Assembly (NCBI GenBank): GCA_043803945.1
Contig: JAZDJN010000087.1
Location: 96,001-160,000, forward strand
Reading direction: 5' to 3'
Length of the DNA stretch: 64,000 nucleotides
Origin: a bacterium
GTDB taxonomy: Bacteria > Bacteroidota > Ignavibacteria > UBA10030
Positions 23,619 to 58,933 of this stretch are shown here, piece by piece. The notes under the pieces were generated by a model, which saw nothing but the letters and a program-made list of their open reading frames with translations, ran no database searches and was not told the DNA's origin. How positions within the stretch are numbered: the first letter of the stretch is position 1; the number at the start of each line of letters is the position of its first letter. A program made the position numbers and the translations under genes.

Positions 23619-23655
23619 CACTATGCTCTGCTCCAGGAAAGGACGATTCATCAAC

Positions 23656-27290: not shown

Positions 27291-27297
27291 CCATCCT

Positions 27298-28275: not shown

Positions 28276-29684
28276 CCGAGCCTCCACAACAACTTACACT
28301 CCATCAGTGGGATTCCCGGTATGTTGAACTGACAGCCTTCGGGTGGTCTCCACGCTGGTACGACGGCCCGCTTTGCCGCCATGCCGAGGGGGGCGATACA
28401 CGCCTTCTCCGCCTCAGGTTCGATAATTCCACGGAAGCATTAACGCTCTGGAATTTTTTACTCACCGAGGAAGACCGGCTGAAACATTTTCGTGAACAGG
28501 GTGCTATTCTGATTGGGACGATGAAAGACCTTGGCACTGTACCGGTGATGGCATTTGCACTTCCGAATGTCGTTGCCTTCTACCCTGATGGTGCCTGGTG
28601 GATACCATGTGTTATGGAGATGTCAACGGGGCTTTTGGAGATTGCCGACTCTCTGGGAATCGATGAATCGTTCTGCCCCGTCCGTGCCATGCTCGGTGCG
28701 TTTGTTACACAGAAGCATTTTCCAATTCCGGATCAGCTCATTTGCAGTGTTGGCGCAACGTGTGATGATTTTTCTGCCATCGCACAGCGTCTGGAAGCCA
28801 TGGGGCATCCCATTATGTGGTGGGAAATTCCACATCGCAATCCGCCGCAAGAAGGAGAAGAAGCCGTTACACTTCCCGGAGGATTTCAAGCATCGCCGCC
28901 ACAATTGTCCTTCGTTAAACACGAGTTAGAAAGAGTCAAAGGTATTTTGGAATCCGCATCGGGATCTGTCCTTGACGATGAAATGCTCTCAGCCGGAATT
29001 CAACGGGCAAATACCGTACGGCGCTGTTTGAAAGAGTTGCGACATCTCACGTTTACTGCGCCGCTCTGTCCTATGCCCGCTCTCGAGATGCTCATCGCCG
29101 AGATGCTCGCCATTCATTTCTGTTCCGACAGAGATGAATCCCTGTTCGTTCTTGAGGGATTGTTGAACCGGGTCCGCCAGCGGATTGCTGATCGACAGGG
29201 ATATTTTGGCGAAGATGCTGCACGGATCTTTTGGGTTAATCCAGTTGCAGACCTTCGGGCGATGAACATTCTTGAACGGTGCGGGGGTCGCCTCTGCGGT
29301 ACGGAATATCTCTTCAGCCACGCATTGGATGAGATTCCAACCGGCATTGCCCCTCTTGAGGCATTAGCACAGATGGCTCTTGCGGATCCAATGGTTGGTT
29401 CAACGGCTGATCGAGCCGATCGCATTATCCGCGACATACAACTGTATGGCGCCGAGGGGCTCATCATTTCGCGGATTCCCGGTGCGAGCCATTGCGCCCT
29501 TGAAGGAAAGATTATTGCCCGGCAGGTTCAGGAAGCACTCAATCTTCCCGTTTTGGAAATAGAGGTGCCACCATTATCCGATGCATTTCGCCTGGCACTC
29601 AATACTCGTATTTCCGCACTGGTCGAAGTGATTCACGGCCGGAGGGCAAAGGAACTTTCGCTCCAATCTCGTTCTCTATCATGA
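28272..29684 (+). CDS. 2-hydroxyacyl-CoA dehydratase subunit-like (HgdB/FldB family) protein
   Basis: FCPVRAMLG, GATCDD, SHCA and TRISALVE motifs; ATGA overlap with the previous gene. Confidence 0.78.
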   Translation: MTEPPQQLTLHQWDSRYVELTAFGWSPRWYDGPLCRHAEGGDTRLLRLRFDNSTEALTLWNFLLTEEDRLKHFREQGAILIGTMKDLGTVPVMAFALPNVVAFYPDGAWWIPCVMEMSTGLLEIADSLGIDESFCPVRAMLGAFVTQKHFPIPDQLICSVGATCDDFSAIAQRLEAMGHPIMWWEIPHRNPPQEGEEAVTLPGGFQASPPQLSFVKHELERVKGILESASGSVLDDEMLSAGIQRANTVRRCLKELRHLTFTAPLCPMPALEMLIAEMLAIHFCSDRDESLFVLEGLLNRVRQRIADRQGYFGEDAARIFWVNPVADLRAMNILERCGGRLCGTEYLFSHALDEIPTGIAPLEALAQMALADPMVGSTADRADRIIRDIQLYGAEGLIISRIPGASHCALEGKIIARQVQEALNLPVLEIEVPPLSDAFRLALNTRISALVEVIHGRRAKELSLQSRSLS

Positions 29685-33547: not shown

Positions 33548-33643
33548 GGGGATGAATGAGGACCTGGTGGCCTTCGCGGACTTCAAATCCGTTGTCCCGC
33601 CCCGAGAGGGGTGGGAGGTGGGTTCGATTCCTACCCGTCCCCG
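33548..33643 (+). tRNA. selC: tRNA-Sec (anticodon TCA)
   Basis: GGGGATGA/CCGTCCCC extended acceptor stem; anticodon arm GCGGA-CTTCAAA-TCCGT (TCA at 33583-33585); long variable arm TCCCGCCCC..GGGGTGGGA; T-arm GTGGG-TTCGATT-CCTAC; discriminator G; CCA not encoded. Confidence 0.95.
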
Positions 33644-33870
33644 CTAAGATTACTCTGCGATGGGACGAGGCTCGTCCGCCGAAGGCGAGACGGCCCGTCC
33701 CCGCTAAAAGAATCGCCGCCAAGTTCGCCAAGAACTAAGAGAGTGGAAGAGTGGAGGGTGCACACGATATACAAGCGTATTCTGTTAGAATCGTGAGACT
33801 TTACAATAGCTCTTTTATTTCTTTGTGTTCTTGGCGCCTTGGCGGCACACTATAGAGGAGGAACCAATCG

Positions 33871-38620: not shown

Positions 38621-38773
38621 TACGAGTAAAGAATGGTCTTCAGAATTATTCATCATACTTCATCTGTGACTATCAGTGCGTTTCTTGTGTTATCGGTGTT
38701 CTATTCTTGGTTTTTCGTATGTATAAAATTGCTATCTGAGTTACCAATAAACTTTAAGTATATAGAGGTGGAT

Positions 38774-40840
38774 ATGAAAAAGTTATTCTTCCTCTCGTTG
38801 ATAATCACACAAACCGTATTTGCTCAATGGTTCTGGCAAAATCCCCTTCCGTTAAGTCATATACTCCAAAGTGTCCACTTCACCGATGCCAATACAGGAA
38901 CGGCTGTGGGGTTTGGCGGCTCAATTCTACGTACTACGAATGGAGGTATAAGCTGGACGATTCAGTTTTTCAACAATGAGCTTATTTTCAATAGCGTCTT
39001 CTTCATAGATGCAAATAATGGAACAGCAGTGGGAGTTCCTGGTGTCATTTATCGTACCACCAATGGCGGTGCAAAGTGGACGAGCCAAACCAGCGGAACG
39101 ACAAATAACCTCAATGGTGTCTTCTTCACCGATCCCAACACGGGAACAGCGGTGGGAGATGGCGATAAAATTCTCCGCACGACCAATGGTGGTGCAACCT
39201 GGACGAGTCAAACGAGCGGAATAACAAGCGCTCTCAGAAGTGTTTTCTTCACTGATGCCAATACTGGGACAGTGGTTGGAAATAGTGGAACCATTCTTCG
39301 CACTACGAATGGTGGAGCGACCTGGGTGAGCCAAACAAGTGGAACAACGACTGGCTTTTCAAATATCTTCTTCACCAACGCCAATGTTGGAACAGCCGTT
39401 GGCGGTGGTGGAAAAATTCTCCGCACTACTGATGCCGGTGCCACCTGGACGAGCCAAACAAGCGGAACAACCAGACCACTTATGTGCGTCTTCTTCACCG
39501 ATACTAACACAGGAACGGCGGTGGGAGAAAGTGGCACAATTCTTCGGACCACCAATGGAGGTGCCGCATGGACAAGTCAATCAAGCGGTACAATTTATAC
39601 ACTCTATGGTGCCTTCTTCACTAATGCGAACACTGGAATAGTGGTCGGAATGTACGGTACGATTCTTCGCACCACTGACAGTGGTGCAAGTTGGGTGAAC
39701 CAATTATCTGGAAATTCAAGCCAGATCTTTGGTGTCGCCTTCACCAGTGCCACGACAGGAACAGCGGTGGGAGCAGGGACAATTCTTCGTACCACCACTG
39801 GCGGCGCAAGCTGGACAAGCCAATCTGTCGGAGTAACTGTCGGACTCAATGGTGTATCGTTCACCGACGCCAATATAGGAACAGCGGTGGGAACAGGCGG
39901 TGCAATATTTCGCACTACCAATGGGGGAACAACATGGACGCTCCAGACAAGTGGAACAAAGACTGATCTCAATAGTGTCTCCTTTACCGATGCTAATAGA
40001 GGAACAGCGGTGGGATGGTATGGCACAATCCTTCGCACAAACGATGGTGGTGCAACCTGGACGAGCCAGACTAGCGGAATCACAACCACGCTCTATGGCG
40101 TCTTTTTCACCGATGCCAACATAGGAACCGCAGTTGGAGATGGCACGGCAATATTACGCACAACAAATGGCGGAGCAAGCTGGACAAAACAGTCAATGAT
40201 GTACAATCTCCGGGGCGTTTATTTTAGCGATACCAATACAGGAACTGTGGTAGGAGAAAGTGGCAGAATTTTTCGTACTACCGATGGCGGCACAACATGG
40301 ACAAGGCAAACAAGTGGAACGGTATTTAATCTTTATGGCGTCTCCTTCATCGGTACCAACATAGGAGTTGCAGTAGGAACCTGGGGCACAATTCTACGCA
40401 CTACCAATGGTGGTTCAAGTTGGACAATCCAATCAAGCGGAACGACGAATGGGCTGCGCGCTGTCTCTTTCACCGATGCGAATACAGGAACAGCGGTTGG
40501 AGAAATCGGGACAATTCTTCGCACCACCAATGGCGGGATTACTGCGGTTGAAGAGTCTGTCGGTACGACAATCCCTGCAGGTTTTTCGTTACTGCAGAAC
40601 TACCCGAACCCATTTAATCCGAGTACAATAATCAGTTATCAGTTGCCGGTTCAAAGTTTTGTTAATTTAAAGGTGTTCGATGTGATTGGTCGAGAAGTGG
40701 AAACTCTTGTGAACGAAAGTCAATCTCCAGGTTTCTATCAAGTCCCATGGCAACCGAAATTTCTTTGTAGCGGGATATACTTTTATCGCATGACCACCGA
40801 TCGGTATTCACTTGTTAGGAAGATGATACTTCAGAGATAA
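38774..40840 (+). CDS. YCF48-like/BNR repeat protein (14 ~41-aa repeats) with T9SS C-terminal domain
   Basis: ATG 38774 after GAGGTG; repeats 'L..V.F.D.N.G.AVG..G.ILRTT.GG.TW'; LLQNYPNPFNP...SGIYFY..KM. Confidence 0.9.
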   Translation: MKKLFFLSLIITQTVFAQWFWQNPLPLSHILQSVHFTDANTGTAVGFGGSILRTTNGGISWTIQFFNNELIFNSVFFIDANNGTAVGVPGVIYRTTNGGAKWTSQTSGTTNNLNGVFFTDPNTGTAVGDGDKILRTTNGGATWTSQTSGITSALRSVFFTDANTGTVVGNSGTILRTTNGGATWVSQTSGTTTGFSNIFFTNANVGTAVGGGGKILRTTDAGATWTSQTSGTTRPLMCVFFTDTNTGTAVGESGTILRTTNGGAAWTSQSSGTIYTLYGAFFTNANTGIVVGMYGTILRTTDSGASWVNQLSGNSSQIFGVAFTSATTGTAVGAGTILRTTTGGASWTSQSVGVTVGLNGVSFTDANIGTAVGTGGAIFRTTNGGTTWTLQTSGTKTDLNSVSFTDANRGTAVGWYGTILRTNDGGATWTSQTSGITTTLYGVFFTDANIGTAVGDGTAILRTTNGGASWTKQSMMYNLRGVYFSDTNTGTVVGESGRIFRTTDGGTTWTRQTSGTVFNLYGVSFIGTNIGVAVGTWGTILRTTNGGSSWTIQSSGTTNGLRAVSFTDANTGTAVGEIGTILRTTNGGITAVEESVGTTIPAGFSLLQNYPNPFNPSTIISYQLPVQSFVNLKVFDVIGREVETLVNESQSPGFYQVPWQPKFLCSGIYFYRMTTDRYSLVRKMILQR

Positions 40841-45766: not shown

Positions 45767-48700
45767 ATGCGTTCACTCCTTCGAATATTCACGTTTATCC
45801 TTACTACAGCTGTTACCCTTGCACAGGTTCCAACCATTACATCATTCTCACCTCGCTCTGGTCCTATGGAAACCATGGTAACAATACAAGGCACAAATTT
45901 CAGCACAGTACCAAGCGAGAATATCGTCTACTTTGGCGGCGTGCGGGCAACCGTAACTTCGGCAACTTCGACATCCCTCGGAGTTGCCGTTCCGCCAGGT
46001 GCGATGCTCGCACCTGTGACAGTCACTGTCGGCGGTCTCACTGCTGCCTCAACGTTGCCATTTATCACAACATTCGCAGGCAGTCAAAGCATTGACAATT
46101 CCTCCTTTGCTCCAAAGGCCGACTTTTCAACGCAGGTACCTTCTGAGATCGTTCACACTGCCGATCTGAATAGTGATGGCAAACTTGACATCATTACAAG
46201 CTATAATATTCTGCGTAACACCAGCTCAACCGCCCTCTCGTTCGCCGCAGGTGTTCCACATACGTTGGGACTGGGGGCTTTTGGTACCGATATGGCTGCC
46301 GACGACTTTGATGGCGATGGCAAACTTGACTTATGGGGGTACTCTCAAAGCAGCGGATTTCTTTACATCGCTCGAAATACATCCTCAGGCGATGGTATTT
46401 CTTTTACCACTCCAATCAGCATATTAATATCTTCTATTCGATCTCTTTCCATAGGGGATCTCGATTTCGATGGGAAACCTGATATTCTTGTTTGTGCTGG
46501 CATAACAATTGGAGTCTATCGCAATACCAGCACGAAAGGATCTATCTCCTTTGCGCCGCTTACTACAATCAGCACATGGATTACCTCGTTTCCATCAAGC
46601 GCTGTGCTTTCCGATCTTGACAATGACGGTAAGAATGAGGTGGTCGTTTCTAGTGGTGATAATTCAATGGTGGTCTTTAAGAATTCAAGCACGCCGGGAA
46701 ACTTCTCCTTCCCATCGCCCACAACGATCCCTGTGAATGCGACAGGATTTCGGATGACCTCCGCTGATCTGGATAATGACGGGACAATTGATCTGATGCT
46801 CGAACGAAATAATGTGATCTCGGTACTCCGGAATACGACAACGCCCGGCTCGTTCTCGTTCGCTGCACCATTCACTCTACAACTCAACTCGACCGCAGTG
46901 CAGAATTATGACCTTGGAGATCTGAATGGCGACGGCAAGATCGATCTTGTCATCGTCAATCAAAACGATGTACGGATCATTCTCAATAAAAGCACCTCAG
47001 GAAATCTCTCATTCTCGCCTGTTGTCAACATTGAACTTGGTGTTCAATTATGGCCTTTTGGGGTTGCAGTCGGTGATTTCGATAATGATGGACGTTCGGA
47101 TATCGCATCTGCAAATAAGTACTCTATGTCCACATCAGTATTTCGCAACGTGGTAACACCACCGCCTCAAAATGTCCTCACAATCACATCGGTAAGCCCG
47201 TTGTCGGGTCCCATCGGAACCACGGTGACAATTACAGGCAGCAATTTCAATGTAACTCCTTTGAACAATGTCGTCTACTTTGGCGCGACTCGTGCAACTG
47301 TGGTTACCGCCTCCTCTGTTTCCCTGACAGTAACCGTTCCTCTGGGTGCGACCCATGAACCGATTACTCTAGTGACTAATGGCATGATGACGCATTCGGC
47401 TTCGGAATTCAACGTAACCTTTCCGAGTCAGAATGTAATCCACACCGGCGCATTCTTCCGTAACATCGATATACCAACCGCAAAGAAGCCTATCGATATG
47501 GTCGTTAACGATTTTGATAACAACGGAAAATCTGATATCGCTTTGATCGGACGGGCAGATACGATGATTCAGATATTCAGGAATACAAGCGATTACGGCA
47601 CGCCGCCCTTCACGAAACATCTGGAACTGCCAGCCATACGTTCGGGAAAGGGATTAACAGATTTCTTCATCTACAGCCTTTGCGGCGGTGATGTCAACAG
47701 CGATGGCAAATTGGATCTCATAGCAATCTGCTACGACACAATTGTGGTTTATCCAAACACCAGCACGGCTGGATCAATATCCTTTGGCACCAAGGTGAGC
47801 TTTCCGGCGGAGGGGATCCAGTGGGGTGATGCTGCACTTGGCGATCTGGATGCCGATGGAAAGCTTGATCTTGCCGTGATAAAAACCGATGCAACACTCT
47901 CCATCATGCGCAATCTCAGCTCAGGCTCAACCATTCTCTTTGGATCACCCAGTCCAGTCGCAGCAGCGGTTGCCCACGACATTAAGGTCATCGACCTTGA
48001 TGCGGATGGACGACCTGAAATCATCGTACGCGGCGGTGAAACCAACATTCAGGTTTTCCGCAATACGAGCACACCAGGTGCAATTTCATTTGCCTCGCCA
48101 CTTATATTCACAACAGATCTGAACGCTACCTCGCTCGACATCGCCGATATCAACAACGATGGGAAACAGGATATCGTTGTTGCCTGTTGGGGCGGATTTT
48201 CGGTTTTCCTGAACTCCAGCAGTGCTGGCACATTGTCGTTAGCTCCAAAACAAACGATTACGCCTGCCATGGGAATCGAAGTTCAAGCATTAGCCTTCAG
48301 TGATATTGACGGTGATGGAAAACCCGATATGGTCGTAACCTGGTACAGCGTTCAAGGCTATGGCTCCTTCTTCAAAGTACTGAAGAACACCAGCTCCGGC
48401 AGCACAGTATCGTTTTCTTCTGCAGTGAATTTCATGACCCCGGATCGCTGCAACCCATTTTTCGTTGCCGATCTGGACAATGATTCGAAGCCCGATATTC
48501 TTATCCCCAATCCAGCGAAGAATACATTCTCGCTCTATTGGAACACCGTCTGGCCGCCGCAAATCAGCAAGCCGGTGATTCAATCCATCTCGCCCACAAC
48601 CGGTCAAATGGGAACAAAATTTACAATCACCGGCTCTGGCTTCGATCCAACACCAACGAAAAACAATGTCTATTTCGGTGGTGCGCGGGCAGAGATTCTC

Positions 48701-50266
48701 ACCGCATCACCATCAACGCTGTATATGCGAGTGCCGGCTGGTGCATTCAGTGGACCGGTTACCGTGACCCAGTATGGATTGACTGCAAAATCCAGCACAC
48801 CATTTCAGATCCTTCTGCCGGGCAGTCATGGATTCGACTCCACCTCATTTAATTTTGCCGCCAACCTTACGGTGACGTATAACAATGTCAGTTATCCCTA
48901 TACTACGGAATCCATCAAAGTTGCCGATTTCAATTGCGATGGAAAGCTCGAAGTAATGGCTTCACTCACCACCACACAAACACACCAGCTCATCACCTGG
49001 CTCAATGCAGGTATAAAAGATTCACTCAAATTCTCTATAAGTGGAAGCGGGGGCATGGCCGGTATGATTTCCATTAATGATTATGATGGAGATGGAAGAT
49101 TAGATATTGCCACGGGGGGGCTTGATGTGTGTCAGAATATCTCGCAGGGGCAGGAATCGGTCTTTGGCTATGTTAGCTATTTGACAGGGAATGCTCCAAA
49201 GGGAGTTGCCTCTGGAGATTTTGACGACGATGGGAAACCCGATATCGCTACGGTTGATAATACCGCGAATATACTCTCCGTTTTTCGAAATACCAGCATC
49301 CCAGGCACTATCTCTTTCGAGAAGAAAATTGATTATGCCACGGGCAGTGGCCCTTACTGCGTCGCCGTGGGCGATCTTACCGGTGACGGGAAACTCGATA
49401 TTGCCGTGACAAACCGAATGGCGAGCACCGTCTCACTCTATCGTAATACAAGTTCATCAGGAACAATTTCCTTCGCCTCGAAAGTAGACCTTGCTGCAGG
49501 AACATCCCCATGGGGTGTTGAAATAGCTGACATCAACAATGATGGAATTCCCGATCTGGTCGTAGCATGCACCTCCGATCGAGTGGTAACCATTTACCGC
49601 AATCTTGGTTCAGGCAGTACATTCAGCTTTGCTCCCAGGGTATCTTTCACTGCCGGCACCAGCACCAGCGGTCCTTTGGGACTCTCTCTTGCTGACCTTG
49701 ACGGCGACGGAAAACTCGATATCGGTGTGGCAATCAGTATTTACAATGTCAAGATGTTTTCACTGTTTCGAAATATCAGTACATTATCAGAGATTAAATT
49801 CGAATCTCGTCTCGATTTTTCGATGTCGACCTCGATCAACGCTTACGAAATTGCACTGGCAGACGTTGACCTCGACGGCAAGGTCGATGTTCTCTATGGC
49901 GGGTACGGCACCGGAGGAATCTCAATTTTCAAGAACATGCTTCCAGTCGTTGTTGGTGTGGAACAGGAACAAACCGGTATGCCGGCTGAATTTCGACTCG
50001 AACAGAATTACCCGAACCCCTTTAATCCTGCGACCTTCATTCGTTATCAACTTCCGGCAGCGTCAAGGGTTTCCATTAAAATTTTTAATGTGCTCGGCCA
50101 GGAAGTGGCTACGCTTGTGAACGGGGAACAGGATGCCGGTTCATATTCCATACAATGGAATGCAACCGCACCAAGCGGAATCTACTTCTGCCAAATGAGA
50201 GCATGGCCTGCTACAGGACAGAGGTCGGGGTTTGTCAAAACAAACAAAATGGTTTTACTCCATTAA
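45767..50266 (+). CDS. IPT/TIG + FG-GAP (VCBS) repeat surface protein with T9SS C-terminal domain
   Basis: Three 'P.I.S.SP..G..GT.(V)TI.G..F...P..N.VYFG' domains, many D.D.DGK.D repeats, LEQNYPNPFNP. Confidence 0.9.
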   Translation: MRSLLRIFTFILTTAVTLAQVPTITSFSPRSGPMETMVTIQGTNFSTVPSENIVYFGGVRATVTSATSTSLGVAVPPGAMLAPVTVTVGGLTAASTLPFITTFAGSQSIDNSSFAPKADFSTQVPSEIVHTADLNSDGKLDIITSYNILRNTSSTALSFAAGVPHTLGLGAFGTDMAADDFDGDGKLDLWGYSQSSGFLYIARNTSSGDGISFTTPISILISSIRSLSIGDLDFDGKPDILVCAGITIGVYRNTSTKGSISFAPLTTISTWITSFPSSAVLSDLDNDGKNEVVVSSGDNSMVVFKNSSTPGNFSFPSPTTIPVNATGFRMTSADLDNDGTIDLMLERNNVISVLRNTTTPGSFSFAAPFTLQLNSTAVQNYDLGDLNGDGKIDLVIVNQNDVRIILNKSTSGNLSFSPVVNIELGVQLWPFGVAVGDFDNDGRSDIASANKYSMSTSVFRNVVTPPPQNVLTITSVSPLSGPIGTTVTITGSNFNVTPLNNVVYFGATRATVVTASSVSLTVTVPLGATHEPITLVTNGMMTHSASEFNVTFPSQNVIHTGAFFRNIDIPTAKKPIDMVVNDFDNNGKSDIALIGRADTMIQIFRNTSDYGTPPFTKHLELPAIRSGKGLTDFFIYSLCGGDVNSDGKLDLIAICYDTIVVYPNTSTAGSISFGTKVSFPAEGIQWGDAALGDLDADGKLDLAVIKTDATLSIMRNLSSGSTILFGSPSPVAAAVAHDIKVIDLDADGRPEIIVRGGETNIQVFRNTSTPGAISFASPLIFTTDLNATSLDIADINNDGKQDIVVACWGGFSVFLNSSSAGTLSLAPKQTITPAMGIEVQALAFSDIDGDGKPDMVVTWYSVQGYGSFFKVLKNTSSGSTVSFSSAVNFMTPDRCNPFFVADLDNDSKPDILIPNPAKNTFSLYWNTVWPPQISKPVIQSISPTTGQMGTKFTITGSGFDPTPTKNNVYFGGARAEILTASPSTLYMRVPAGAFSGPVTVTQYGLTAKSSTPFQILLPGSHGFDSTSFNFAANLTVTYNNVSYPYTTESIKVADFNCDGKLEVMASLTTTQTHQLITWLNAGIKDSLKFSISGSGGMAGMISINDYDGDGRLDIATGGLDVCQNISQGQESVFGYVSYLTGNAPKGVASGDFDDDGKPDIATVDNTANILSVFRNTSIPGTISFEKKIDYATGSGPYCVAVGDLTGDGKLDIAVTNRMASTVSLYRNTSSSGTISFASKVDLAAGTSPWGVEIADINNDGIPDLVVACTSDRVVTIYRNLGSGSTFSFAPRVSFTAGTSTSGPLGLSLADLDGDGKLDIGVAISIYNVKMFSLFRNISTLSEIKFESRLDFSMSTSINAYEIALADVDLDGKVDVLYGGYGTGGISIFKNMLPVVVGVEQEQTGMPAEFRLEQNYPNPFNPATFIRYQLPAASRVSIKIFNVLGQEVATLVNGEQDAGSYSIQWNATAPSGIYFCQMRAWPATGQRSGFVKTNKMVLLH

Positions 50267-50354
50267 GGCTCGACCATAGACGACCGTATCTCCATCGTCA
50301 TGGCCGTTTATTGAAGTGCGCCGTATTACAAACCCCCTTCCAGCACACCGAAAC

Positions 50355-50402
50355 GGGGACAAGCTCAAACGCTTGAATTTGTCCCCTTCTTTTTGTTCTT
50401 TT
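50355..50402 (+). terminator. Rho-independent terminator
   Basis: GGGGACAAG...TTTGTCCCC followed by a T-rich tail. Confidence 0.6.
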
Positions 50403-50436
50403 ATACAGAACAAGTTGGTTATTCCTCTCTCCCTCA

Positions 50437-50667
50437 ATGAAAAACAAACTCATCGATACCGTTCTTGTCCTTGTCTACATTACTGCCCTCTTCTCTATAG
50501 GTTTTTCTTTTTCGAGTTGTGTCTCTTCCGAACTTGCTCTCCAAATGGAAACCTCGGTCAACTGTCCGTTAATGAAGAATCTTCAGGACAACGACGAAGA
50601 TCTCTTTCAAATTGAAGACGGCATTGGCGCCGTTGGGGAGGCCTCAGCCTGCCCCACGTGAGGGTAG
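50437..50667 (+). CDS. Small lipoprotein selenoprotein ending CPT-U-G (DUF4266-like)
   Basis: Lipobox FSSC; ...GIGAVGEASA-C-P-T-TGA(50659-50661)-GGG-TAG; CxxU motif and downstream SECIS-like hairpin. Confidence 0.8.
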
Positions 50668-50671
50668 GTCC

Positions 50672-50691
50672 TATGTTTCAGGTGAAACATA
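50672..50691 (+). promoter_or_regulatory. SECIS-like hairpin
   Basis: TATGTTTC-AGGT-GAAACATA, perfect 8-bp stem at +11 after the TGA; same geometry as 19433-19452. Confidence 0.8.
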
Positions 50692-51707
50692 CGAATACTA
50701 TCTCTCGAGTTCGCATCCTCTTCGGAGTGCTGGTTGCGGCTATACTGTTCTCTCCCTCACCTGTTACTGCGCAAGGATATGACGATGCTTTCGAAATGAG
50801 AAGCAAGCTCAAGGTAGAGGTACAATATGCCGACTATGGGGAGTACGAATACCCTGAGCCAATCCTTTACCAGTATGGTCTCTCACCCTATCAACAACGT
50901 TATCCTTACATCGTCAATTTTCCTGAGCGGCGGGGACTCATCAAATTCAGCAGATTGGTGAGTAGTGAGACGGTTCTTGGATTCAAATATCAATTCTCCG
51001 ATCTCCGTGAAGATGTCAAGCAGCATCTCTTCGAAACAAAACTGACGAAAACACTGGATATCGGAATTATCGGTATAGCTGCGGCACAGCTTCTTCGTGA
51101 TTCCCGGGGATTTTCTGCGGTTCAATACGGAACAGGAATAAGCTGGGAGCCAAACGCAATCACATTGTTCCAGGGAGACATCCAGTATTATTATCGAGGA
51201 GATGCTGCTAGTAGTGTGGGCGGAAGATTAGGAACTGCCAATGCACGTTTGAAGTTCAGACAAGTCTTAACGCTTTCAACCGCCCTGCAAGCCGAGTATA
51301 GTTTCTATAACGCAGCGGGCAACTCGTTGAAGTTCAACTCGCAGAGCCTGGCACTGTGGCTCAGCCAATTTTTCAAGACACAAACAGCTATTCATGTCAA
51401 TGGCCGGTTCTATACAAACACGATGGGCATTCAATCCTTCTCCCCCTCTCTGGAAATTGCTCAATATATCGACTGGGCGACCGTTCTCTGGCTGAAGTTC
51501 CGGTACTATACAAACGAGAGCAGGAATGTCTCCTTCGGTGAGCAGGGTGTCTATATCCCCAACGGTTTAAGATCGACCTCGGTGAGCGCGCAGGTAAATC
51601 ATGAACTAACTCCCTCTCTGCTGGTTTACGGGAAATATCGGTACTACAAGAGTAACCTAAACATCCAGATGAATACCTATCTCACTGGATTGGTCTATTC
51701 CTTTTAG
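50673..51707 (+). CDS. Outer-membrane beta-barrel protein (DUF3570-like by context)
   Basis: Signal peptide, amphipathic beta-strands rich in Y/R, C-terminal ..GLVYSF. Confidence 0.75.
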   Translation: MFQVKHTNTISRVRILFGVLVAAILFSPSPVTAQGYDDAFEMRSKLKVEVQYADYGEYEYPEPILYQYGLSPYQQRYPYIVNFPERRGLIKFSRLVSSETVLGFKYQFSDLREDVKQHLFETKLTKTLDIGIIGIAAAQLLRDSRGFSAVQYGTGISWEPNAITLFQGDIQYYYRGDAASSVGGRLGTANARLKFRQVLTLSTALQAEYSFYNAAGNSLKFNSQSLALWLSQFFKTQTAIHVNGRFYTNTMGIQSFSPSLEIAQYIDWATVLWLKFRYYTNESRNVSFGEQGVYIPNGLRSTSVSAQVNHELTPSLLVYGKYRYYKSNLNIQMNTYLTGLVYSF

Positions 51708-51836
51708 ACCACTGATTATCGCTGATTAACACTGATTATCACTGAGAAAAGTAAGTAGGTTGAGATCTTGTTCGAAGAAATAGCAAATAGAATCTTTGTC
51801 TGCGTTCGGGGCTGACTAAAAAGAGAACTCGCGGAC

Positions 51837-51985
51837 TGTCATTCCGGCAATCTTCTAGCCGCCTGCCTGACGAAGTGTTCGTCACGCAGGCAGGGAATCC
51901 AGACAAAGGCTAAATCAATACACTGGACACCGGATTGAAGTTCCGCTGTACGGGATGCCGTAAAGCGGCACATTCCGGTGTGACG
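51837..51985. repeat. REP/RPE-like composite palindrome with a nested 33-bp CCTGCC...GGCAGG element (51862-51894)
   Basis: GTCATTCCGGC..GCCG[insert]GAATCCAG....CTGGACACCGG...CCGGTGTGAC. Confidence 0.65.
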
Positions 51986-52051
51986 CGTCATTTCTTTTTA
52001 GACGACCCCAAATTGGCGTGCCATCGGTGGAGAATTTACTTAATTACAGCA

Positions 52052-52825
52052 ATGAACAGAACTCGCGCTATAGGATTGTTGCTCTTTCTTCTCTCCTGGT
52101 TCTTGCTGCAGCAGTGCGGCGAGGCTCCTCCGACAATTCCGGAACTGTTTACCGGATCGCTTAAAATAACGGCATCTGATCCGGCAATCAAATCTCTGGC
52201 AATCGACCTTGACGACATAAAGCTTGGTCTCTTTCCGAATCCGGCATTGGTATCAGATCTTACAATCGGCACTCATAAACTTCTGGTCACCGGAGACAAT
52301 AAGGCTTCATCAGTACTACTCGTAACCATCGCACGAAATCAGCAAACCAATATTGTTCTCGAATTGCTGGCCGAAGGTGCGTTTCTAGGACAGAAAGCTC
52401 CAGATTTTGCTGTGACGACTATCCTGAATGAGCGATTCTCCCTTGAGTCGCAGAAAGGCAAAGTGGTGCTTCTTGCCTTTTTTGAACATACCTGACTGGA
52501 GTGCATTCAGGCGGAGTTGCCGTCTGTGCAATGGGTTGTCGGAGCAGCATTCTCGCCCGAGCAGTTGACGATATTGGGCGTGAATACTACATCCTCAACT
52601 GAGTGGTTGTTGAATTATCGCACCCAGTCGGGTATCACATTCCCATTCGCGTACGATCAGAAGAGCGAATTGTTTACCAAGTACAAAATCGGCGGAACGT
52701 ATGGATACTATCCGCCGACGTATATCATCATCGATCAGAACGGTATTGTCCGGTACAGAATTGACAACACCTTTAAACGAGCAGTGGAAATGGCAACTTG
52801 CATAAAAGGATTACTCACAAACTAA
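52052..52825 (+). CDS. TlpA/peroxiredoxin-like thioredoxin-fold selenoprotein (UxxC) with N-terminal PEGA-like domain, probable lipoprotein
   Basis: G.KAPDF...GKVVLLAFFEHT-TGA(52493-52495)-LECIQAELP joins ORFs 51935 and 52517 in one frame; later YPPTYIIIDQNG.VRY. Confidence 0.9.
52502..52530 (+). promoter_or_regulatory. SECIS-like hairpin
   Basis: TGCA..CAGGCGG-AGTTG-CCGTCTG.TGCA. Confidence 0.7.
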
Positions 52826-52851
52826 CCAAGGCAAACCTTGATGGAGGCGCT

Positions 52852-55161
52852 ATGAAAACGAAAGTGAGTATTATAATTCTGCTGATCCCGGTGATGATTG
52901 TGTCACAGAGCAAATCTTGGGAAGCGATGGGTCCAGAGGGGGGAAGAATTGCTGCGTTCGCCCAGGATCCTCAAAACGGCGCCATCTTGTACACAACAAC
53001 CTATGGATATCCCAGCAAAATCTTTAAGTCTTCAACTCACGGACAACAATGGAACGTGGTTGGATCGATCAACGATTATATCAGTGGATTTGCTATTGAT
53101 CCACGTATAAGCGCAATCATCTATGTGTTCTCCTCGAGCCGGCTCTATCGAAGCACAAATGGCGGGCAGATCTGGTCATCGATTCCGTTGCCGGCGAATT
53201 ATTACCTCTATGACATTTGCCTCGATCCGATAAAATCCAACACGATTCATGCAAGCGGCTATCATTACGTCTCCGGCACAACATACCAGTCGTACGTCGC
53301 TTATCTGAACAGCACGAACGCCGGTGCATCCTGGACAACAAACGATATTCTGCTGACGTTGAGCTACAATGAGGGATATGGGCGAGCCATCGCTGTCGAT
53401 AGTTCTGATAATCAAACAATCCTCATTGGGGGTTACGTCTATGTACTCTCTGGCAGTTTGTACAACGGATATGGCAAACTCCTTCGCAGCACAAACAGCG
53501 GCGTTAGTTTTTCCGACGTGACACCATCGGGTTCAGGGTATTTCTACGATGTTGCTATCGATCCGAAAAATTCCGGGAAGGCCTACGCAGCATCGTCGGG
53601 TGGTGTCTATCGAACAACAGACAAGGGATTAACCTGGCTGCGGAATAATGGTTTTGTGGGCATCTGTTACTATCTTTCCCTCGATAAGGCGAATCCCAAT
53701 AACCTTCTCGCTCAATCATACGGCCAACTCTACCGGAGCACTGACGCTGGAATCAACTGGCTTCAATCACTTACGACCGGGTCGGGGTATTCGGGGATCA
53801 TCATGGAGAACTCTCCATCGCAGTACATGTTTTATGCCAACGACGCCGGCATTTTCCAATCCAGCAACCGCGGCAACACCTGGGAACCCTGCAATCGCGG
53901 TATTACCTCTGCAAATATCACCTCACTGTATACTCCATCTTCCTCGATGCCAATCCTGTATGCAGGATTCCAATACAATACAGTATTCAAAACCACGGCT
54001 GCAACTAACCCGTCGGTATCGTGGCAGATGCTGGATCGATTTTACACATGCACCAATATCAACGCAATACTCTCATTGCCGGAAGATCCGAACAAGCTTT
54101 ATGCTCTGGAGGGCGGCGGCTGAGGTAACTCTGGGCTCTATATGAGCACAAACGGCGGCGCCGCTTGGAAACAACTCAACCAGACGCTTGATGAAGGATA
54201 CGCAGTTGTCACTGTCCCCGGAAGTGTTTTTACCGGAGGATGTCTTGTCGATAGTGCGCTTTCAAAGATGGCTGTTATCAAACTCACCATTGATGGTACG
54301 CTAACCAACACATCGATCCTGAGTTCTGAAGCCGGTGAGGTGAAGGCCATGGCTGTCCATCCCATAAATTCTTCTATCGTGTATGCGGGTGGAACCTATC
54401 GTGATATTTCATACTATAACTGCAGTCGATTATATAAAACGATAAATGGCGGAAGCAGTTGGTTTGAAATCGGTAAAACTAGTTTCAACATCAAAAACGA
54501 TGGAGTGTACGGTCTCTGTGTCGATCCATCGAATCCGGCTAAACTTCTTGCCGCAACAAACCTTGGTGTTCTTGTCAGTGAAAACGAGGGTACGACATGG
54601 AGCTCGGCAGCGCAGAAATTAAATTGCACCTCGCTTCTCCCCGACCCTTTAACGCCCAACCGGTATTTTCTCGGAACAAGAACCGGCGTCTATATCAGCA
54701 TTGATGGCGGGAAGTCCTGGCAGCAACTCGGGGGCCAATTAACTGCAACACCGGTTCTCTCGCTCGCTTATGATAAAATAGCAAAGGTCCTTTATGCCGG
54801 GACAGAAGGGCAGGGTGTTTACCGCTATAGCCTCTCGACAACAAATGTTGCTTCAGCACCCTTTGATGTGCCCGACGAATTTGCGCTGTACCAGAATTAT
54901 CCCAACCCGTTTAATCCATTGACAATAATCGATTTTCAATTGCCGATTACCACAATGGTGACACTTAGTGTTTTTGACCTTCTCGGCCGCGAGGTGGCAA
55001 TACTGGTGAATGAAGAAAAAACGGCGGGAAGGTACTCCGTTTCATGGAATGCATCGAACACTCCGAGCGGTATTTATTTTTACAGACTGTTGACCGGCGA
55101 CGCCAACCATGAACCAAGGGCAAGTCTCTGTCAGACAAAAAGAATGATCATCCTGAGATAA
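52852..55161 (+). CDS. BNR/VPS10-type beta-propeller selenoprotein with T9SS C-terminal domain (769 aa, Sec424)
   Basis: Signal peptide, W..MGPEGG start, S.N.G..W Asp-box repeats; YALEGGG-TGA(54121-54123)-GNSGLYMSTNGG joins ORFs 52798 and 54142 in frame; LYQNYPNPFNP. Confidence 0.8.
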
Positions 55162-55211
55162 TTTTTCGAATCTACTGTCTCTTCAAGCAGGACTATTATC
55201 GGACGGAAAGT

Positions 55212-56084
55212 TTGAGTACCTTGCTTTTATCCTATCACTTTGCAGCGACAATGATCCTTGCCCCAATGACTCCCTTACTGGCACAGCGACTCTGTGCTGC
55301 ACTTCACTGCAGCCTCCCCACAAAAAAAATGGTCGACGATATTTATCGGGCTGCACCAGTAAAACTTGCACCGCAGCCTATCCCCCCCAGCGGTGCCATG
55401 ATAACGGTGCCCGTGTTTGCCGCTCATAATGATTCGGTGCGACAATAACGCTCTGCTTCATTATCACAATTTCCCCTGGGTGTTCTGATAGGCGGAACAA
55501 AGAAGGATGTAATTATCTCAAACAGAATTTATACCAACCTAAAAATAAATGTCCCCAAGCCGGTCGTGATTTATGGATGGCATAAGCTCGATGGAACACC
55601 GATACAACCCGTCTATAACGGCCACGAGCAGACCTACGCCGATTACAGCCATGGCATTCGCCTTGTGAAGGATACCGTGCTGGTTGATGGTATCCCGAGA
55701 TTTCTCTCTTCGGTGCTTGCTGATCCGGTGTATCATCTTCTCTTGAGCGACGAAGGAATCATTTCCATTCCCTATTACACTTTATCTACCCATGTATTAC
55801 CCGAAGAGGTTCCACCGCCCTATCAATTTCAACTCCATCAAAACTATCCAAATCCATTCAACCCAATTACAACAATCTGTTTTACTGTGTCATCTTCTGG
55901 TAAGTATCAGCTCAGGGTGTACACCTTAACAGGAAAGGAAGTTAGCGTACTTGAATATCAGGAGTTGTATGCGGGTAATCAGACGGTTCGGTATGATGCT
56001 CGTGATCTGCCCTCGGGAACATATTTCTACAAATTAGAGAGCAAGAACGGTGCACTCATCAGAAAAATGACGCTGGTGAAATGA
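55212..56084 (+). pseudogene. 5'-truncated T9SS-domain protein gene with an internal TAA
   Basis: PMTPLLAQR...HNDSVRQ-TAA(55446-55448)-RS...GGTKKDV..VVIYGWH..YADYSHGIRLV..QNYPNPFNP in one frame; no signal peptide or credible start. Confidence 0.75.
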
Positions 56085-56420
56085 AAGATCCTGAGATGGG
56101 AGAGAGTTCCGCCAATCCGCCAAAAAGATGGCGGACAAGTCCACCCCCGACATTAAAGCGTTGAACTGCCGGTCATCCGCCTGAATAGACCTAATCGTTC
56201 GCTGCTCAGCGAAATCTGATAGAAAGCGAATGAACTTTCACGGCGAGATTACTCTCTCTTTCGTTGCCGAAAGATATGGTTCGGGTATTTATCATTACCA
56301 CATTTAAAAGGTGAGCAGCATTTTCACGCGCAGAGTATTTTTTTGAAAGACCATTTTCCCAAACCATGTGATGGTTGCCTTTCACCTGAAACTCGTGTAG
56401 CTTTAATTCACTGAGGGTTG

Positions 56421-56452
56421 AATCCCCCGCTGCTTGCGGCGGGGAGCTTCAT
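56421..56452. mobile_element. Possible isolated IS200/IS605-type end hairpin (no transposase)
   Basis: AATCCCCCGCTGCTTGCGGCGGGGAGCTTCAT, imperfect GC-rich hairpin resembling IS605-family ends. Confidence 0.35.
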
Positions 56453-56500
56453 TTTTATCACTGTTCTTTTTTTATCATCTGCCTGAAAGCTCCTGCCGAT

Positions 56501-58933
56501 ATGCCAAGAATAATGCTGCTTGTTTTTCTCCTTGCTGCGTCTACACTCCAGGCTCAGGTGGCGCTGGATACTCTTTCTTCGTTCCCTGTGGCACCCGGTG
56601 TAATCCATACCACCATCGTTGCCCCGTCTGTTCCATGGACAATCAACCTGCTCCAGATCGACCTTACCAATCCCCTCATTAGCGTCAAAACGGTCAAAGC
56701 GAACGACCGCATGGCGGGTCTGGAACGAACAAGCTCCATGGCGGCACGGAATAGCCGCGAAGGTCACCTGGTTGCAGCCGCAGTTAATGGAGATGCTTAT
56801 GCGGCCGGTGGTATTCCCACCAACATGCAACTGGTCGACGGTGAGCCTGTTCACAAAGAGGTCGACAACGTCTGTATCGGGCTCGACCTGACCAAGAAAC
56901 CGATGATGAAGATGGTGAATTTCGACGGCGAAGTCCGGACCGCAAAGGAGGTCTATCATTTTTCCAGCATCAATCAGGCACGAGGATCCGATCAGCTTGT
57001 GCTCTTCAACCGCTTCTACGGAAACTCAACAGGTACCGATGCCAACGGTGCAGAGGCGCTTTTGACGCCTCTGTCGGAATGGTATGCCAATGGCCTCGTG
57101 GCATGCCGGGTCGATACAATTGTCAACGGCGCAGGGAACACGTCATTTCCCTCTTCAAAAGTTATCCTTTCAGGTCATGGCGCCGCTCGAACATTTCTAA
57201 CATCACGAATACAACAAGGTGACACGCTCCATCTCTTTCTCGGCCTGTCGCCCTCTCTAAAAAAAATGAAACAGATGATTGGGGGATTTTCTATCCTCGT
57301 GTCCGAGGGAAAAGTTAATACTACGCGTATCACGGTCCGTGAGCCGCGCACCATTGCAGGTTTCTCTGCCGACAGCACAAAACTCTATCTTGCGACCATC
57401 GATGGACGGTCGGCATCGAGTCTCGGGATGACTTACTTTGAGCTTGCCGATTTTATGCTCCAGATGGGGATGGCTTTCGGCATTAACCTGGACGGCGGCG
57501 GATCGACCACAATGGTCGTCCGGGATCAAATAACCAACCGCCCGTCAGACGGCCAGGAGCGAATGGTAGGCAATTCCATCGTCGTCGTTTCCACCGCGCC
57601 GAAAGGTCAGTTGACAAAGATTCAGATACTGCCGAATCGGGCAAAAGTTTTTATCGGAGATACGTTTCAGTTCTCGGCGCAGGGTGTTGATGAATATTTT
57701 AATCCGTATCAGCTCGATCCTTCCCTAATCACTTTTTCCGTTCATCCCTCCCTGGGAACGATATCCCCGACGGGACTTTTCAAACCGAGCGGGTTAAAAG
57801 AAAGCGGATTTGTCTACATCTCTTATGGATCGCTTATCGATTCCGCAGCAGTGTTGCTCCGAACGATCCGGCGAATAGCGATAACACCGAAATTTGCTGT
57901 CACCGATCTTTCCCGCCCAATTCCTTTTTCGCTGAATGGATTTGACGAGGACGGTATGGCACATAAACCCGGCCTTTATCAAATTCAATGGAGGCTCACG
58001 AATCCTTCGCTTGGACAGATTTCGCCGGAAGGCGTTTTTACTCCACAGGCCAGGGGAATCTCGCTTCTTATTGCCTCCATGAACAATACGGCAGCAGACA
58101 CAGCGCTGATCCGGGTGGAGACAGGAAGCGGAACGCTCGTGATCGATTCATTGGAATCGAGAGGGAACTGGAAAATCTCTATGTTGAATATCGAACAGGC
58201 CGCCGTGAGTATTGCTCCAACTGTCAGTTCATTAGGCCGGTTTTCTCTGCAAATCGATTATTCATACCGGTATGATTCAAGCGTCCCCTCGTACATCTAC
58301 ATCGATTCTTTGTTTTCGTTATACGGTGTACCGGATTCACTCTCGGTTGACTGCCGCGCCGATAGTGCACGGTACCGTCTCTATTTCATTGTCGAGGATG
58401 ACAACAGGGAATTATTCCGTTTCTTCGGGCATACATTTGCTGATCAGCCAAACATCTTCAAACAGATTCGGGCATCGACTGCTACTCCTCAGATGGTTGG
58501 CACCTCGGGAGTTTTCAATTTTCCTATCACGCTGAAACGTATCGAAATACAGTTGATGGGAACGGGAAAATTTTCAGGGACTCATTACAATGGTACGTTG
58601 TATCTGGATAATCTCACCGTTCATTATCCGGGAATTCCCACCGTTGCAGAACGGGAGATCTCTCCTCCTCGAACTTTTTCTCTTCTGCAAAACTTCCCCA
58701 ATCCCTTCAATCCGACAACGACCATCCGGTTTACGGTTCCTCACAATGGCCTATACCGCTTGACCGTTCATAACCTGCTGGGTCAGGAAGTGATTATGGT
58801 ACTGCACAAGACTCTTTCAGCAGGGTATTATTCGGTACTGTTCGATGCAGAGCAGTTAAGCTCGGGTATGTACGTTTACAAGCTCGAAGGGGGTGCGTTA
58901 ACCCTTACGAAGAAAATGCTGATCGTGAAGTAA
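56501..58933 (+). CDS. Phosphodiester glycosidase (NAGPA-like) protein with Ig-like domains and T9SS C-terminal domain
   Basis: AAVNGD, EPRT..G, TIDGR, GMT..ELA, NLDGGGSTT and NRPSDG.ER motifs; LLQNFPNPFNP. Confidence 0.9.
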   Translation: MPRIMLLVFLLAASTLQAQVALDTLSSFPVAPGVIHTTIVAPSVPWTINLLQIDLTNPLISVKTVKANDRMAGLERTSSMAARNSREGHLVAAAVNGDAYAAGGIPTNMQLVDGEPVHKEVDNVCIGLDLTKKPMMKMVNFDGEVRTAKEVYHFSSINQARGSDQLVLFNRFYGNSTGTDANGAEALLTPLSEWYANGLVACRVDTIVNGAGNTSFPSSKVILSGHGAARTFLTSRIQQGDTLHLFLGLSPSLKKMKQMIGGFSILVSEGKVNTTRITVREPRTIAGFSADSTKLYLATIDGRSASSLGMTYFELADFMLQMGMAFGINLDGGGSTTMVVRDQITNRPSDGQERMVGNSIVVVSTAPKGQLTKIQILPNRAKVFIGDTFQFSAQGVDEYFNPYQLDPSLITFSVHPSLGTISPTGLFKPSGLKESGFVYISYGSLIDSAAVLLRTIRRIAITPKFAVTDLSRPIPFSLNGFDEDGMAHKPGLYQIQWRLTNPSLGQISPEGVFTPQARGISLLIASMNNTAADTALIRVETGSGTLVIDSLESRGNWKISMLNIEQAAVSIAPTVSSLGRFSLQIDYSYRYDSSVPSYIYIDSLFSLYGVPDSLSVDCRADSARYRLYFIVEDDNRELFRFFGHTFADQPNIFKQIRASTATPQMVGTSGVFNFPITLKRIEIQLMGTGKFSGTHYNGTLYLDNLTVHYPGIPTVAEREISPPRTFSLLQNFPNPFNPTTTIRFTVPHNGLYRLTVHNLLGQEVIMVLHKTLSAGYYSVLFDAEQLSSGMYVYKLEGGALTLTKKMLIVK

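Follow-up and report, generated by a model that had tools for sequence, protein, structure and literature searches.

How should we read a short lipoprotein gene that carries an in-frame TGA two codons before a second stop codon, and that is followed at once by a beta-barrel gene? The question is raised by positions 50437 to 50667 of a 64,000-nucleotide stretch of DNA (hereafter the window, meaning the whole stretch) from an Ignavibacteria bacterium of the lineage UBA10030, corresponding to positions 96,001 to 160,000 of contig JAZDJN010000087.1 in assembly GCA_043803945.1. A first-pass annotation, made from the letters alone, had taken the two genes for a selenocysteine (Sec) version of the DUF4266/DUF3570 lipoprotein-barrel pair. 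From comparisons of sequences, the cassette that these genes open appears to be a selenium-based, flavin-free cousin of the DUF4266/DUF3570 redox module. With a confidence only slightly better than even, we favor the reading that the lipoprotein is a lipid-anchored peptide of ~49 residues ending in CxxU-Gly, with hairpin-aided decoding of its UGA, and that it is the first gene of an envelope cassette acting in a thiol/selenol relay.

A lipoprotein gene that runs through a conserved TGA

50437-50667, + strand: lipoprotein gene, 76 codons with TGA read as putative Sec (open reading frame [ORF] reading, 29 database homologs, 15 further distinct DNA loci)
50659-50661, + strand: TGA, putative U75, then GGG and TAG (invariant across 16 distinct copies)

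The predicted 76-residue lipoprotein consists of a signal peptide, a lipobox FSFSS-C28 (50518-50520), an acidic middle part (NLQDNDEDLFQIEDG) and a tail GAVGEASA-C72-P-T-U75-G. At the 3' end of the gene, A-C72-P-T is followed by TGA (50659-50661), GGG (Gly76) and TAG (50665-50667). This arrangement, TGA-GGG-stop, is kept in 20/20 DNA copies (the window and 19 related loci), and together with a gap of only 5 nucleotides (nt) to the barrel gene it bears out the ending C-P-T-U-G-stop and the directly following barrel described in the first-pass annotation. Homologs ending at CPT with TAA or TAG, which had been named there as speaking against Sec, were not encountered, TGA being the codon after CPT in every one of the 20 copies.

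With four duplicates removed (L019, L020, L023 and L027, which duplicate L011, L012 and L026), 16 distinct copies remain, namely the window and 15 loci. TGA and GGG are invariant among them (16/16 each), and the third codon is TAG in 13, TAA in two and TGA in one. The Thr (ACG, ACC, ACA or ACT) and Pro (CCC or CCT) codons 5' of the TGA differ synonymously between these copies, and the 49 mature codons show 17, 10 and 42 variable sites at codon positions 1, 2 and 3, respectively, which is a coding pattern. A stop two codons past the TGA that is conserved yet respelled would be difficult to account for if ribosomes did not pass the TGA. An in-frame UGA conserved in all 16 copies, in a frame that runs on to a conserved end, is the pattern of a bacterial selenoprotein, and the TGA is almost certainly read as Sec, giving a protein that ends in CxxU-G.

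At the protein level, 29 homologs were found in a collection of 5.8 billion clusters, with near-invariant mature parts and all of them (29/29) annotated as ending in ...ACPT. A reading as a precursor of a ribosomally synthesized and posttranslationally modified peptide or a bacteriocin was dropped because every member has a lipoprotein signal peptide at its N terminus. An ESM Atlas look-up of the 74-amino-acid form gave no usable feature match, and its structure matches are meaningless for a disordered peptide (predicted local distance difference test [pLDDT], 0.52). A sigma-70 promoter scan of the + strand upstream of the gene returned nothing, Bacteroidota-type promoters being outside the model of that scan.

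A SECIS-like hairpin on the start codon of the barrel gene

50673-50690, + strand: hairpin resembling a selenocysteine insertion sequence (SECIS), AUGUUUC-AGGU-GAAACAU, which includes the barrel ATG (RNA folding and covariation in alignment A5)

With the Sec codon so near the C terminus, a SECIS has no place except at the stop codon or past it. The hairpin found there lies 13 bases 3' of the UGA, its loop begins 18 nt after the UGA, and its core has 5 bp (50675-50679 with 50684-50688; stem GUYUC/GARAC, loop AGGU). A G/U-containing apical loop is thus present shortly 3' of the UGA, and in its size, in its G/U loop and in its spacing from the UGA the hairpin matches the rules for bacterial SECIS elements, as well as the element described for the Cys-Sec-ending lipoprotein SaoC (10.1101/2022.07.06.499078).

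In an alignment of the hairpin from 15 loci (A5), the five core pairs are standard pairs in 15/15 sequences, with one compensatory pair (C-G in eight, U-A in seven, unpaired in none). Paired cells make up 86.7% of the alignment, against 26.7 to 57.1% when the partner columns are slid by one to three positions, and 0/500 column shuffles reach the observed covariation score, a control that is inflated by the relatedness of the sequences. The covarying switch alters codons 2 and 5 of the barrel signal peptide jointly (F/K to S/R), while the remaining signal peptide is not conserved, and the constraint therefore acts on the RNA. GTG at 50658 was rejected as an alternative barrel start because one extra base before the ATG in the window puts the extension out of frame in other loci. 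As a separate observation, the Ala-Cys-Pro codons can pair with GGG-UAG-G (50647-50669, 8 bp), so that the UGA would sit in a loop of 7 nt; one of these pairs is lost wherever the final stop is spelled TAA or TGA.

A barrel distantly related to DUF3570 and devoid of redox groups

50673-51707, + strand: predicted outer-membrane beta-barrel, 344 amino acids, signal peptide, about 16 strands (ORF, AlphaFold2, Foldseek, profile comparisons)

The module invoked for comparison is known from clusters of DUF4266, DUF3570, thioredoxin-like and ApbE genes, often with DsbD, as described in the available text of Meheust et al. (2021, eLife, PMC8238504), according to which ApbE flavinylates DUF3570 at two [S/T]GA[S/T] sites and the DUF4266/DUF3570 module has yet to be assigned a function. 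The same trio of neighbors is mentioned in the available part of Haft's myxosortase preprint. The clustering that the first-pass annotation had put forward is confirmed by that description and by our canonical loci, for which 301 genomes were sampled in the phylum and 68 supplied loci.

The ATG of the barrel gene (50673) falls 5 nt after the lipoprotein stop. The AlphaFold2 model has about 16 strands (pLDDT, 72.6; predicted template-modeling score, 0.68), and its Foldseek matches are outer-membrane barrels only. When the barrel profile was run against 1.84 billion representatives, only 28 proteins were retrieved at E ≤ 0.001, the last full-length matches being two true DUF3570 proteins (P0058 and P0060; E = 3.3e-5 and 7.1e-4; 137 bits with Pfam), and a wider profile matches six canonical DUF3570 genes of a sister family (E = 7.6e-9 to 2.5e-6). 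Profile-profile comparison (hhalign) of the barrel family with 18 canonical DUF3570 proteins gave a probability of 80% (E = 1.4e-5, 159 columns), with a common RYY-x-D/N-x-x-G-I motif. In an extended barrel set, 10 of 14 members match the Pfam DUF3570 model (PF12094) at E ≤ 0.1, always at about model positions 282-340, the region on which wider barrel relatives score 12.6 to 24.2 bits or not at all. Judged by these profiles, the barrel is a distant DUF3570 offshoot below Pfam membership, its common descent being detectable at marginal values. A PF12094 search of the genome itself gave no match, though the controls of that search were also unmatched, and the wider barrel relatives (P0036-P0046 and P0054) were absent from 401 genomes sampled in the phylum.

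Whereas at least one [S/T]GA[S/T] flavinylation motif is present in 18/18 canonical proteins, none is found in 12 close and 11 wider barrel relatives (0/12 and 0/11), and Cys is absent from the window barrel and not conserved in the barrel family. With neither a flavinylation motif nor a conserved Cys, the barrel cannot itself carry electrons, and the lack of a conserved Cys would make it a dock or conduit, not a carrier. ApbE is not encoded in the cluster, as the first-pass annotation had stated for the window: the single ApbE match of the genome is on contig C38, and ApbE is absent among the conserved neighbors of the related loci. DsbD is encoded by two genes elsewhere in the genome.

The small protein as an analog of DUF4266

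With respect to layout, the small protein has much in common with DUF4266: a lipobox, a mature part of similar length (49 residues versus 53 to 56), a P-x-M at a similar offset, a tail of small residues, a terminal redox pair and a place just 5' of the barrel gene. It is thus encoded directly upstream of a DUF3570-type gene (5-nt gap), with the reservation that this barrel is only a distant DUF3570 relative. The Gly-rich stretch with a C-terminal Cys-x-Cys is not present, the tail being A-C-P-T-U-G. Canonical DUF4266 tails read GGCGC plus one or two residues in 35/35 ORFs recognized from 50 searched loci, and no Sec form of canonical DUF4266 was seen, since none of these 35 ORFs has a stop at a Cys position. 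To judge from these sequences, the small protein would be analogous to DUF4266, with common descent possible and unproven.

Two further selenoprotein genes in a conserved cassette

51708-52051, no strand assigned: spacer between barrel and thioredoxin genes, with two dispersed repeat units (query 22-100 and about 101-305; repeat search of the same genome)
52052-52825, + strand: TlpA/ResA-like thioredoxin-fold lipoprotein, 257 amino acids, putative Sec148 (Pfam AhpC-TSA, E = 5.8e-18; ResA subfamily, E = 7.2e-14)
52852-55161, + strand: double propeller predicted to be exported by the type IX secretion system (T9SS), 769 amino acids, putative Sec424, Cys400 (TGA conservation, domains, fold model)

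Across 20 related loci searched with tblastn, the cassette has a conserved order of lipoprotein, barrel, thioredoxin-like protein and propeller ORFs. The barrel follows the lipoprotein in 19/20 loci (the remaining contig ends first), and the thioredoxin follows in 13/13 loci that are long enough, so that the earlier statement of a thioredoxin next after the barrel holds in every locus long enough as well as for the AhpC-TSA match in the window. The spacer between the two genes has 52 matches across the contigs of the genome, its own place included; as related loci have a short gap at this position, it is a recent insertion within the operon.

What the first-pass annotation missed is that the redoxin and the propeller are also selenoproteins, and that in most related loci the cassette adjoins selD. 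In the redoxin, a TGA at 52493-52495, which under translation table 11 splits the gene into two ORFs, gives FFEHT-U-L-E-C, Sec taking the place of the first Cys in the CxxC motif. This TGA is conserved in the window and in 12/12 loci read, and it is followed by a hairpin, CAGGCGG-AGUUG-CCGUCUG, conserved in all 12 related loci read. The redoxin has an additional N-terminal domain and a lipobox, and it scores below the cutoff of every NCBIfam model. Three loci have a second redoxin paralog between the barrel and the main redoxin (L011 3545-4252, L018 2482-2904 and L024 1349-1717), with an in-frame TGA and the motif G-U-G-G-G-C.

The propeller appears under table 11 as two ORFs (441 and 339 amino acids; 52798-54123 and 54142-55161), in frame and parted by a TGA at 54121-54123 (EGGG-U-GN), which is found in 8/8 copies (the window and 7/7 loci reaching it; EG[AG]G-U-GN) and also precedes a conserved hairpin. 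Its domains are BNR/sortilin repeats and a T9SS C-terminal sorting domain, with only subthreshold NCBIfam matches. The model is a double beta-propeller (pLDDT, 79.6) whose nearest structures are GH74 enzymes (xyloglucanases), with PorZ also listed. Beside Sec424, Cys400 is the sole invariant Cys of the propeller (7/7 sequences), and in the secondary structure of the model the two are predicted to flank a beta-hairpin. As predicted from sequence, the cassette encodes three selenoproteins, each with an export signal; it seems uncommon for a bacterial selenoprotein to be displayed on the cell surface.

Large surface proteins with T9SS sorting are encoded around the cassette, namely a 1,499-amino-acid FG-GAP/TIG protein (45767-50266), a Ycf48/BNR propeller (38633-40840) and an NAGPA-domain protein (55566-58933). 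In a canonical locus from a genome of the same order (L063), the DUF4266-DUF3570 pair lies between two propeller genes, one of the PD40/HZS-alpha type on its upstream side and an NHL/arylesterase-like T9SS one on its downstream side, with no ApbE or thioredoxin within 8.5 kb. A secreted propeller beside the barrel may be a theme shared by this locus and the cassette.

Sec machinery and linkage to selD

20309-21727: selA (Pfam SelA, E = 1.5e-151)
21693-23618: selB (377 bits versus a cutoff of 242)
23536-24927: HGD-D family protein, between selB and selD
about 25219-26316: selD, with its own Sec codon at 25300-25302 (CAG-U-AGK)
27241-29684: two further HGD-D ORFs
33548-33644: tRNA-Sec, 7 kb past selD

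The Sec trait is complete within the window, with tRNA-Sec, selA, selB and selD all 17 to 30 kb upstream of the cassette; the selA-selB-HGD-D-selD block (20.3 to 26.3 kb) is about 24 kb 5' of it. In the related loci the linkage is closer, selD being immediately upstream of the cassette in 10 of the 15 loci with at least 1,000 nt of upstream sequence, or 9/13 distinct loci when L011/L020 and L010/L013 are each counted once. It was not found upstream in L010/L013, L012, L018 and L029. The gene order in L019 is selB, HGD-D, BcrAD-type ATPase, selD, lipoprotein. An HGD-D gene and an activator-like BcrAD/BadFG-type ATPase gene are found between selB and selD in several loci (L019 1463-4687; also L017, L026 and L028), so that a dehydratase-activator pair is in conserved association with genes of Sec biosynthesis.

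A possible thiol/selenol relay

The redox-capable groups of the cassette are C72/U75 in the tail of the lipoprotein, U148/C151 in the redoxin and C400/U424 in the propeller, with none in the barrel, and the best reading of this distribution would be a thiol/selenol relay at the outer membrane. Its observed parts are the genes as ordered in the cassette, three conserved UGA codons each with a hairpin, the Sec machinery and the distant homology of the barrel; we infer the topology, which protein reduces which, and what the last substrate is. In this scheme, the UGA would be decoded with the aid of the hairpin that lies past the stop, on the start codon of the barrel gene. DsbD (one of the two in the genome) would reduce the thioredoxin-like protein, which would exchange a selenenylsulfide with the CxxU tail of the lipoprotein. 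The barrel, of DUF3570 stock and with the covalent-flavin sites lost, would serve as dock or conduit by holding or threading the tail, and the tail would then serve the Cys/Sec site of the surface propeller. The scheme would be the canonical model minus the flavin.

For co-folding, the barrel alignment (A6) was combined with that of the mature peptide from residue 28 to residue 74 (A8), U-G being left off, and the score was 0.53 (runs of 0.53, 0.01 and 0.53) versus 0.01 for the best control. The mark is reached by 58/80 solved complexes and 2/110 mismatched pairs, and passing scores of 0.60 or less account for 7/80 solved complexes and for both passing mismatches. Between runs, the shared contacts amount to at least 0%, and the partner has a pLDDT of at least 28. 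The model thus lends weak support to pairing of barrel and peptide; this co-folding check, suggested in the first-pass annotation, is passed weakly, and the swinging selenol arm proposed alongside it is still something that we infer.

A more far-reaching version, which we think unlikely, would have the relay span the outer membrane, with the periplasmic UxxC redoxin charging the CxxU-Gly arm through the flavin-less barrel to the Cys/Sec pair of the propeller and carrying reducing power or selenium between the surface and the SelD pathway. The SECIS on the start codon of the barrel gene would then make barrel synthesis depend on Sec insertion.

Weighing the relay against other explanations

Several results weigh against the relay and the kinship that it builds on. 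For the Sec assignment, no Cys-containing homolog of the small protein is among the database matches: none of 30 matches (E ≤ 10, 5.8 billion clusters) has Cys for Sec, with the limit that distant Cys forms may escape a search requiring shared 5-residue words, and the search for homologs ending in CxxCG that the first-pass annotation had called for therefore came back empty. All 29 database matches being the Sec form cut short, they offer no Sec/Cys alignment of the usual kind. The hairpin has a single covarying pair and a short conserved stem (5 bp), an Rfam scan of 50000-55500 at E ≤ 10 gave no model matching it and only one chance small-RNA match, and the GGG and the region that follows could be conserved as the ribosome-binding site of the barrel gene.

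For the kinship with DUF4266/DUF3570, only the barrel half of the earlier reading stands, as a distant link. The Pfam DUF4266 model (PF14086) is matched neither by the window protein (E ≤ 1) nor by any of 30 members (30/30 unmatched at E ≤ 10), although it does recognize a canonical neighbor (52.9 bits); a PF14086 search of the genome itself was also negative, as were its controls. A whole-length hhalign match with DUF4266 (70%, E = 4e-5) was rejected, as it covers only the signal peptide, the lipobox and P-x-M, and when only the mature parts are compared the probability falls to 0.7% (E = 0.083, 8 columns). NCBIfam (release 20) has no match to the small protein, and the redoxin and propeller match it only below threshold. 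The barrel scores 12.7 bits on PF12094 (E = 0.056, model positions 282-340), below the gathering score of 25. Its lack of flavinylation motifs, the absence of ApbE and DsbD from the window and a co-folding pass in the weak class, which by the counts of the tool is more often wrong than right, also stand on this side, and the closeness of selD fits selenium handling equally well as redox transfer.

That the TGA is an ordinary stop, ending the protein at ...ACPT, with GGG, stop and hairpin forming a ribosome-binding site and a translational-coupling structure, is very improbable in our view. GAGGG does lie 8 to 12 nt 5' of the barrel ATG, which the hairpin contains, gene callers end 29/29 homologs at Thr74, and there is no Cys homolog to anchor the Sec position. 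However, a stop as the third codon in all 16 distinct copies, in three spellings, is sensible only if ribosomes pass the TGA, each of the next two genes of the operon has a conserved UGA where Sec is not in doubt, with a hairpin spaced from it as in the lipoprotein gene, and the cassette travels with selD. Moreover, C-x-x-U near the terminus is a recognized redox motif in the available text of PMC13188914. The pair could also merely resemble DUF4266/DUF3570 while being unrelated to it, the barrel, for example, exporting or displaying the lipoprotein or the T9SS propeller, and the Sec residues being catalytic locally. Such a pair would agree with the lack of detectable homology of the small protein to DUF4266, with a DUF3570 likeness limited to the C-terminal half of the barrel (beta-barrels share compositional patterns), with the resemblance of the propeller to GH74 enzymes and to PorZ, a T9SS surface component, and with a window rich in T9SS cargo. 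We nevertheless hold it to be improbable: the DUF3570 matches always fall on model region 282-340, with the common RYY-x-D/N-x-x-G-I motif, the only matches of the profile at borderline significance among 1.84 billion proteins are true DUF3570, and the canonical locus of the sister family also has a T9SS propeller right after the barrel. The order of lipoprotein, barrel and thioredoxin is itself canonical (available text of PMC8238504).

Trafficking of selenium or of a metal(loid) is a further explanation, unlikely but to be taken seriously, in which the Cys/Sec groups of propeller, tail and redoxin bind selenium in the form of Se-S or Se-Se adducts, or else a soft metal, and hand it across the outer membrane, for example, to SelD. 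A barrel without a redox group is what would be expected of a channel, the cassette is directly 3' of selD in 9/13 distinct loci (with selB in the same run of genes in L019), and selA, selB, selD and tRNA-Sec are 17 to 30 kb upstream in the window. Such linkage may, on the other hand, merely reflect a common Sec trait and need not imply selenium transport. An uptake system that depends on three Sec residues would break down when selenium is scarce, no inner-membrane transporter is encoded within the cassette, and U as the nucleophile of a thioredoxin fold is the classic redox arrangement. As far as the available texts go, SaoC is likewise a lipoprotein with C-terminal Cys-Sec (10.1101/2022.07.06.499078), and selenium- or metal-handling roles are noted for other C-terminal Sec proteins (PMC13188914); the DUF3570 relatives of the barrel, by contrast, belong to electron-transfer clusters (PMC8238504).

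Relation to known systems

The thiol/selenol relay, which we continue to favor, invites comparison with several described systems. The C-terminal arm of mammalian thioredoxin reductase, Gly-Cys-Sec-Gly, is flexible, and its selenolthiol swings between two sites. The lipoprotein is like it in having a penultimate Sec followed by Gly, a flexible extension and a nearby Cys, and unlike it in the absence of homology, in having CxxU in place of CU and in being a free-standing lipid-anchored peptide and not part of a flavoenzyme. TlpA/ResA/DsbE-like UxxC selenoproteins share their fold and the Sec at the first position of CxxC with the neighbor gene at 52052-52825; this likeness concerns the neighbor and not the lipoprotein or barrel, and the neighbor has an extra N-terminal domain and a lipobox.

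In the DUF4266/DUF3570 clusters, as far as the available text of PMC8238504 describes them, a small secreted lipoprotein with a terminal redox pair likewise stands just before an envelope protein of ~340 to 480 amino acids, with a thioredoxin-like protein beside it. Unlike in those clusters, the tail is C-P-T-U-G and not G-G-C-G-C-N, the thioredoxin has Sec, a Sec-containing T9SS propeller is added, and there are neither a nearby ApbE nor flavinylation sites. SaoC, a CD2366-family Cys-Cys-COOH lipoprotein of the SAO system of which a few members end in Cys-Sec-COOH, has a SECIS with a 7-bp stem and a GGU loop that lies past the stop, next to the start of the following gene (available text of Haft and Gwadz 2022, 10.1101/2022.07.06.499078). 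In both proteins the last residues of a lipoprotein hold a Cys/Sec pair, the UGA is beside the true stop and the SECIS comes after it. According to the same source, SaoC differs in its length (about 158 versus 76 amino acids), its unrelated family (our protein has no NCBIfam match), its Sec, which is last and rare there but penultimate and in all copies seen here, and its neighbors, an ABC transporter and a MerB-like lyase there but a barrel, a redoxin and a propeller here. The C-terminal "star" selenoproteins (UXX-star, GUXX-star, KCU-star and UXPK-star), as presented in the available text of PMC13188914, also have Sec a few residues from the C terminus, but none of those listed is a lipoprotein paired with a barrel, and their NCBIfam models miss our protein. 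That text does not mention DUF4266, lipoprotein, BNR, ResA, WAxxUGC or propeller.

C-terminal Sec in bacteria, even in a lipoprotein (SaoC), is therefore already known. For the family itself we found no description in literature on DUF4266/DUF3570, on Ignavibacteria selenoproteins or on selenocysteine and T9SS, as judged from listings, and supplementary tables could hold such clusters. What is apparently new and undescribed is the lipoprotein family, together with the cassette of three selenoproteins and the flavin-less derivative of DUF3570. The barrel is rare, being present in 1/41 close relatives (the genome itself) and in 2/401 genomes sampled in the class, and the four named genome records with the family are Ignavibacteria or Bacteroidota metagenome-assembled genomes.

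Significance

The cassette adds two candidate selenoprotein families to the catalogs, a lipoprotein ending in CxxU-Gly and a Sec propeller exported by the T9SS, neither of which is contained in NCBIfam release 20, in the gene calls of the collections or in the available text of PMC13188914. Gene callers truncate or split all three selenoprotein genes, and the annotation of these genomes needs correction. With its SECIS lying across the next start codon, the lipoprotein gene would be a compact case in which Sec insertion meets translational coupling. With the flavin removed and selenium at the remaining candidate redox positions, the cassette points to the tail of the small protein and the thioredoxin as the working parts of the module. 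If the relay reading is true, these bacteria would have a non-heme, non-flavin route for chemistry across the outer membrane.

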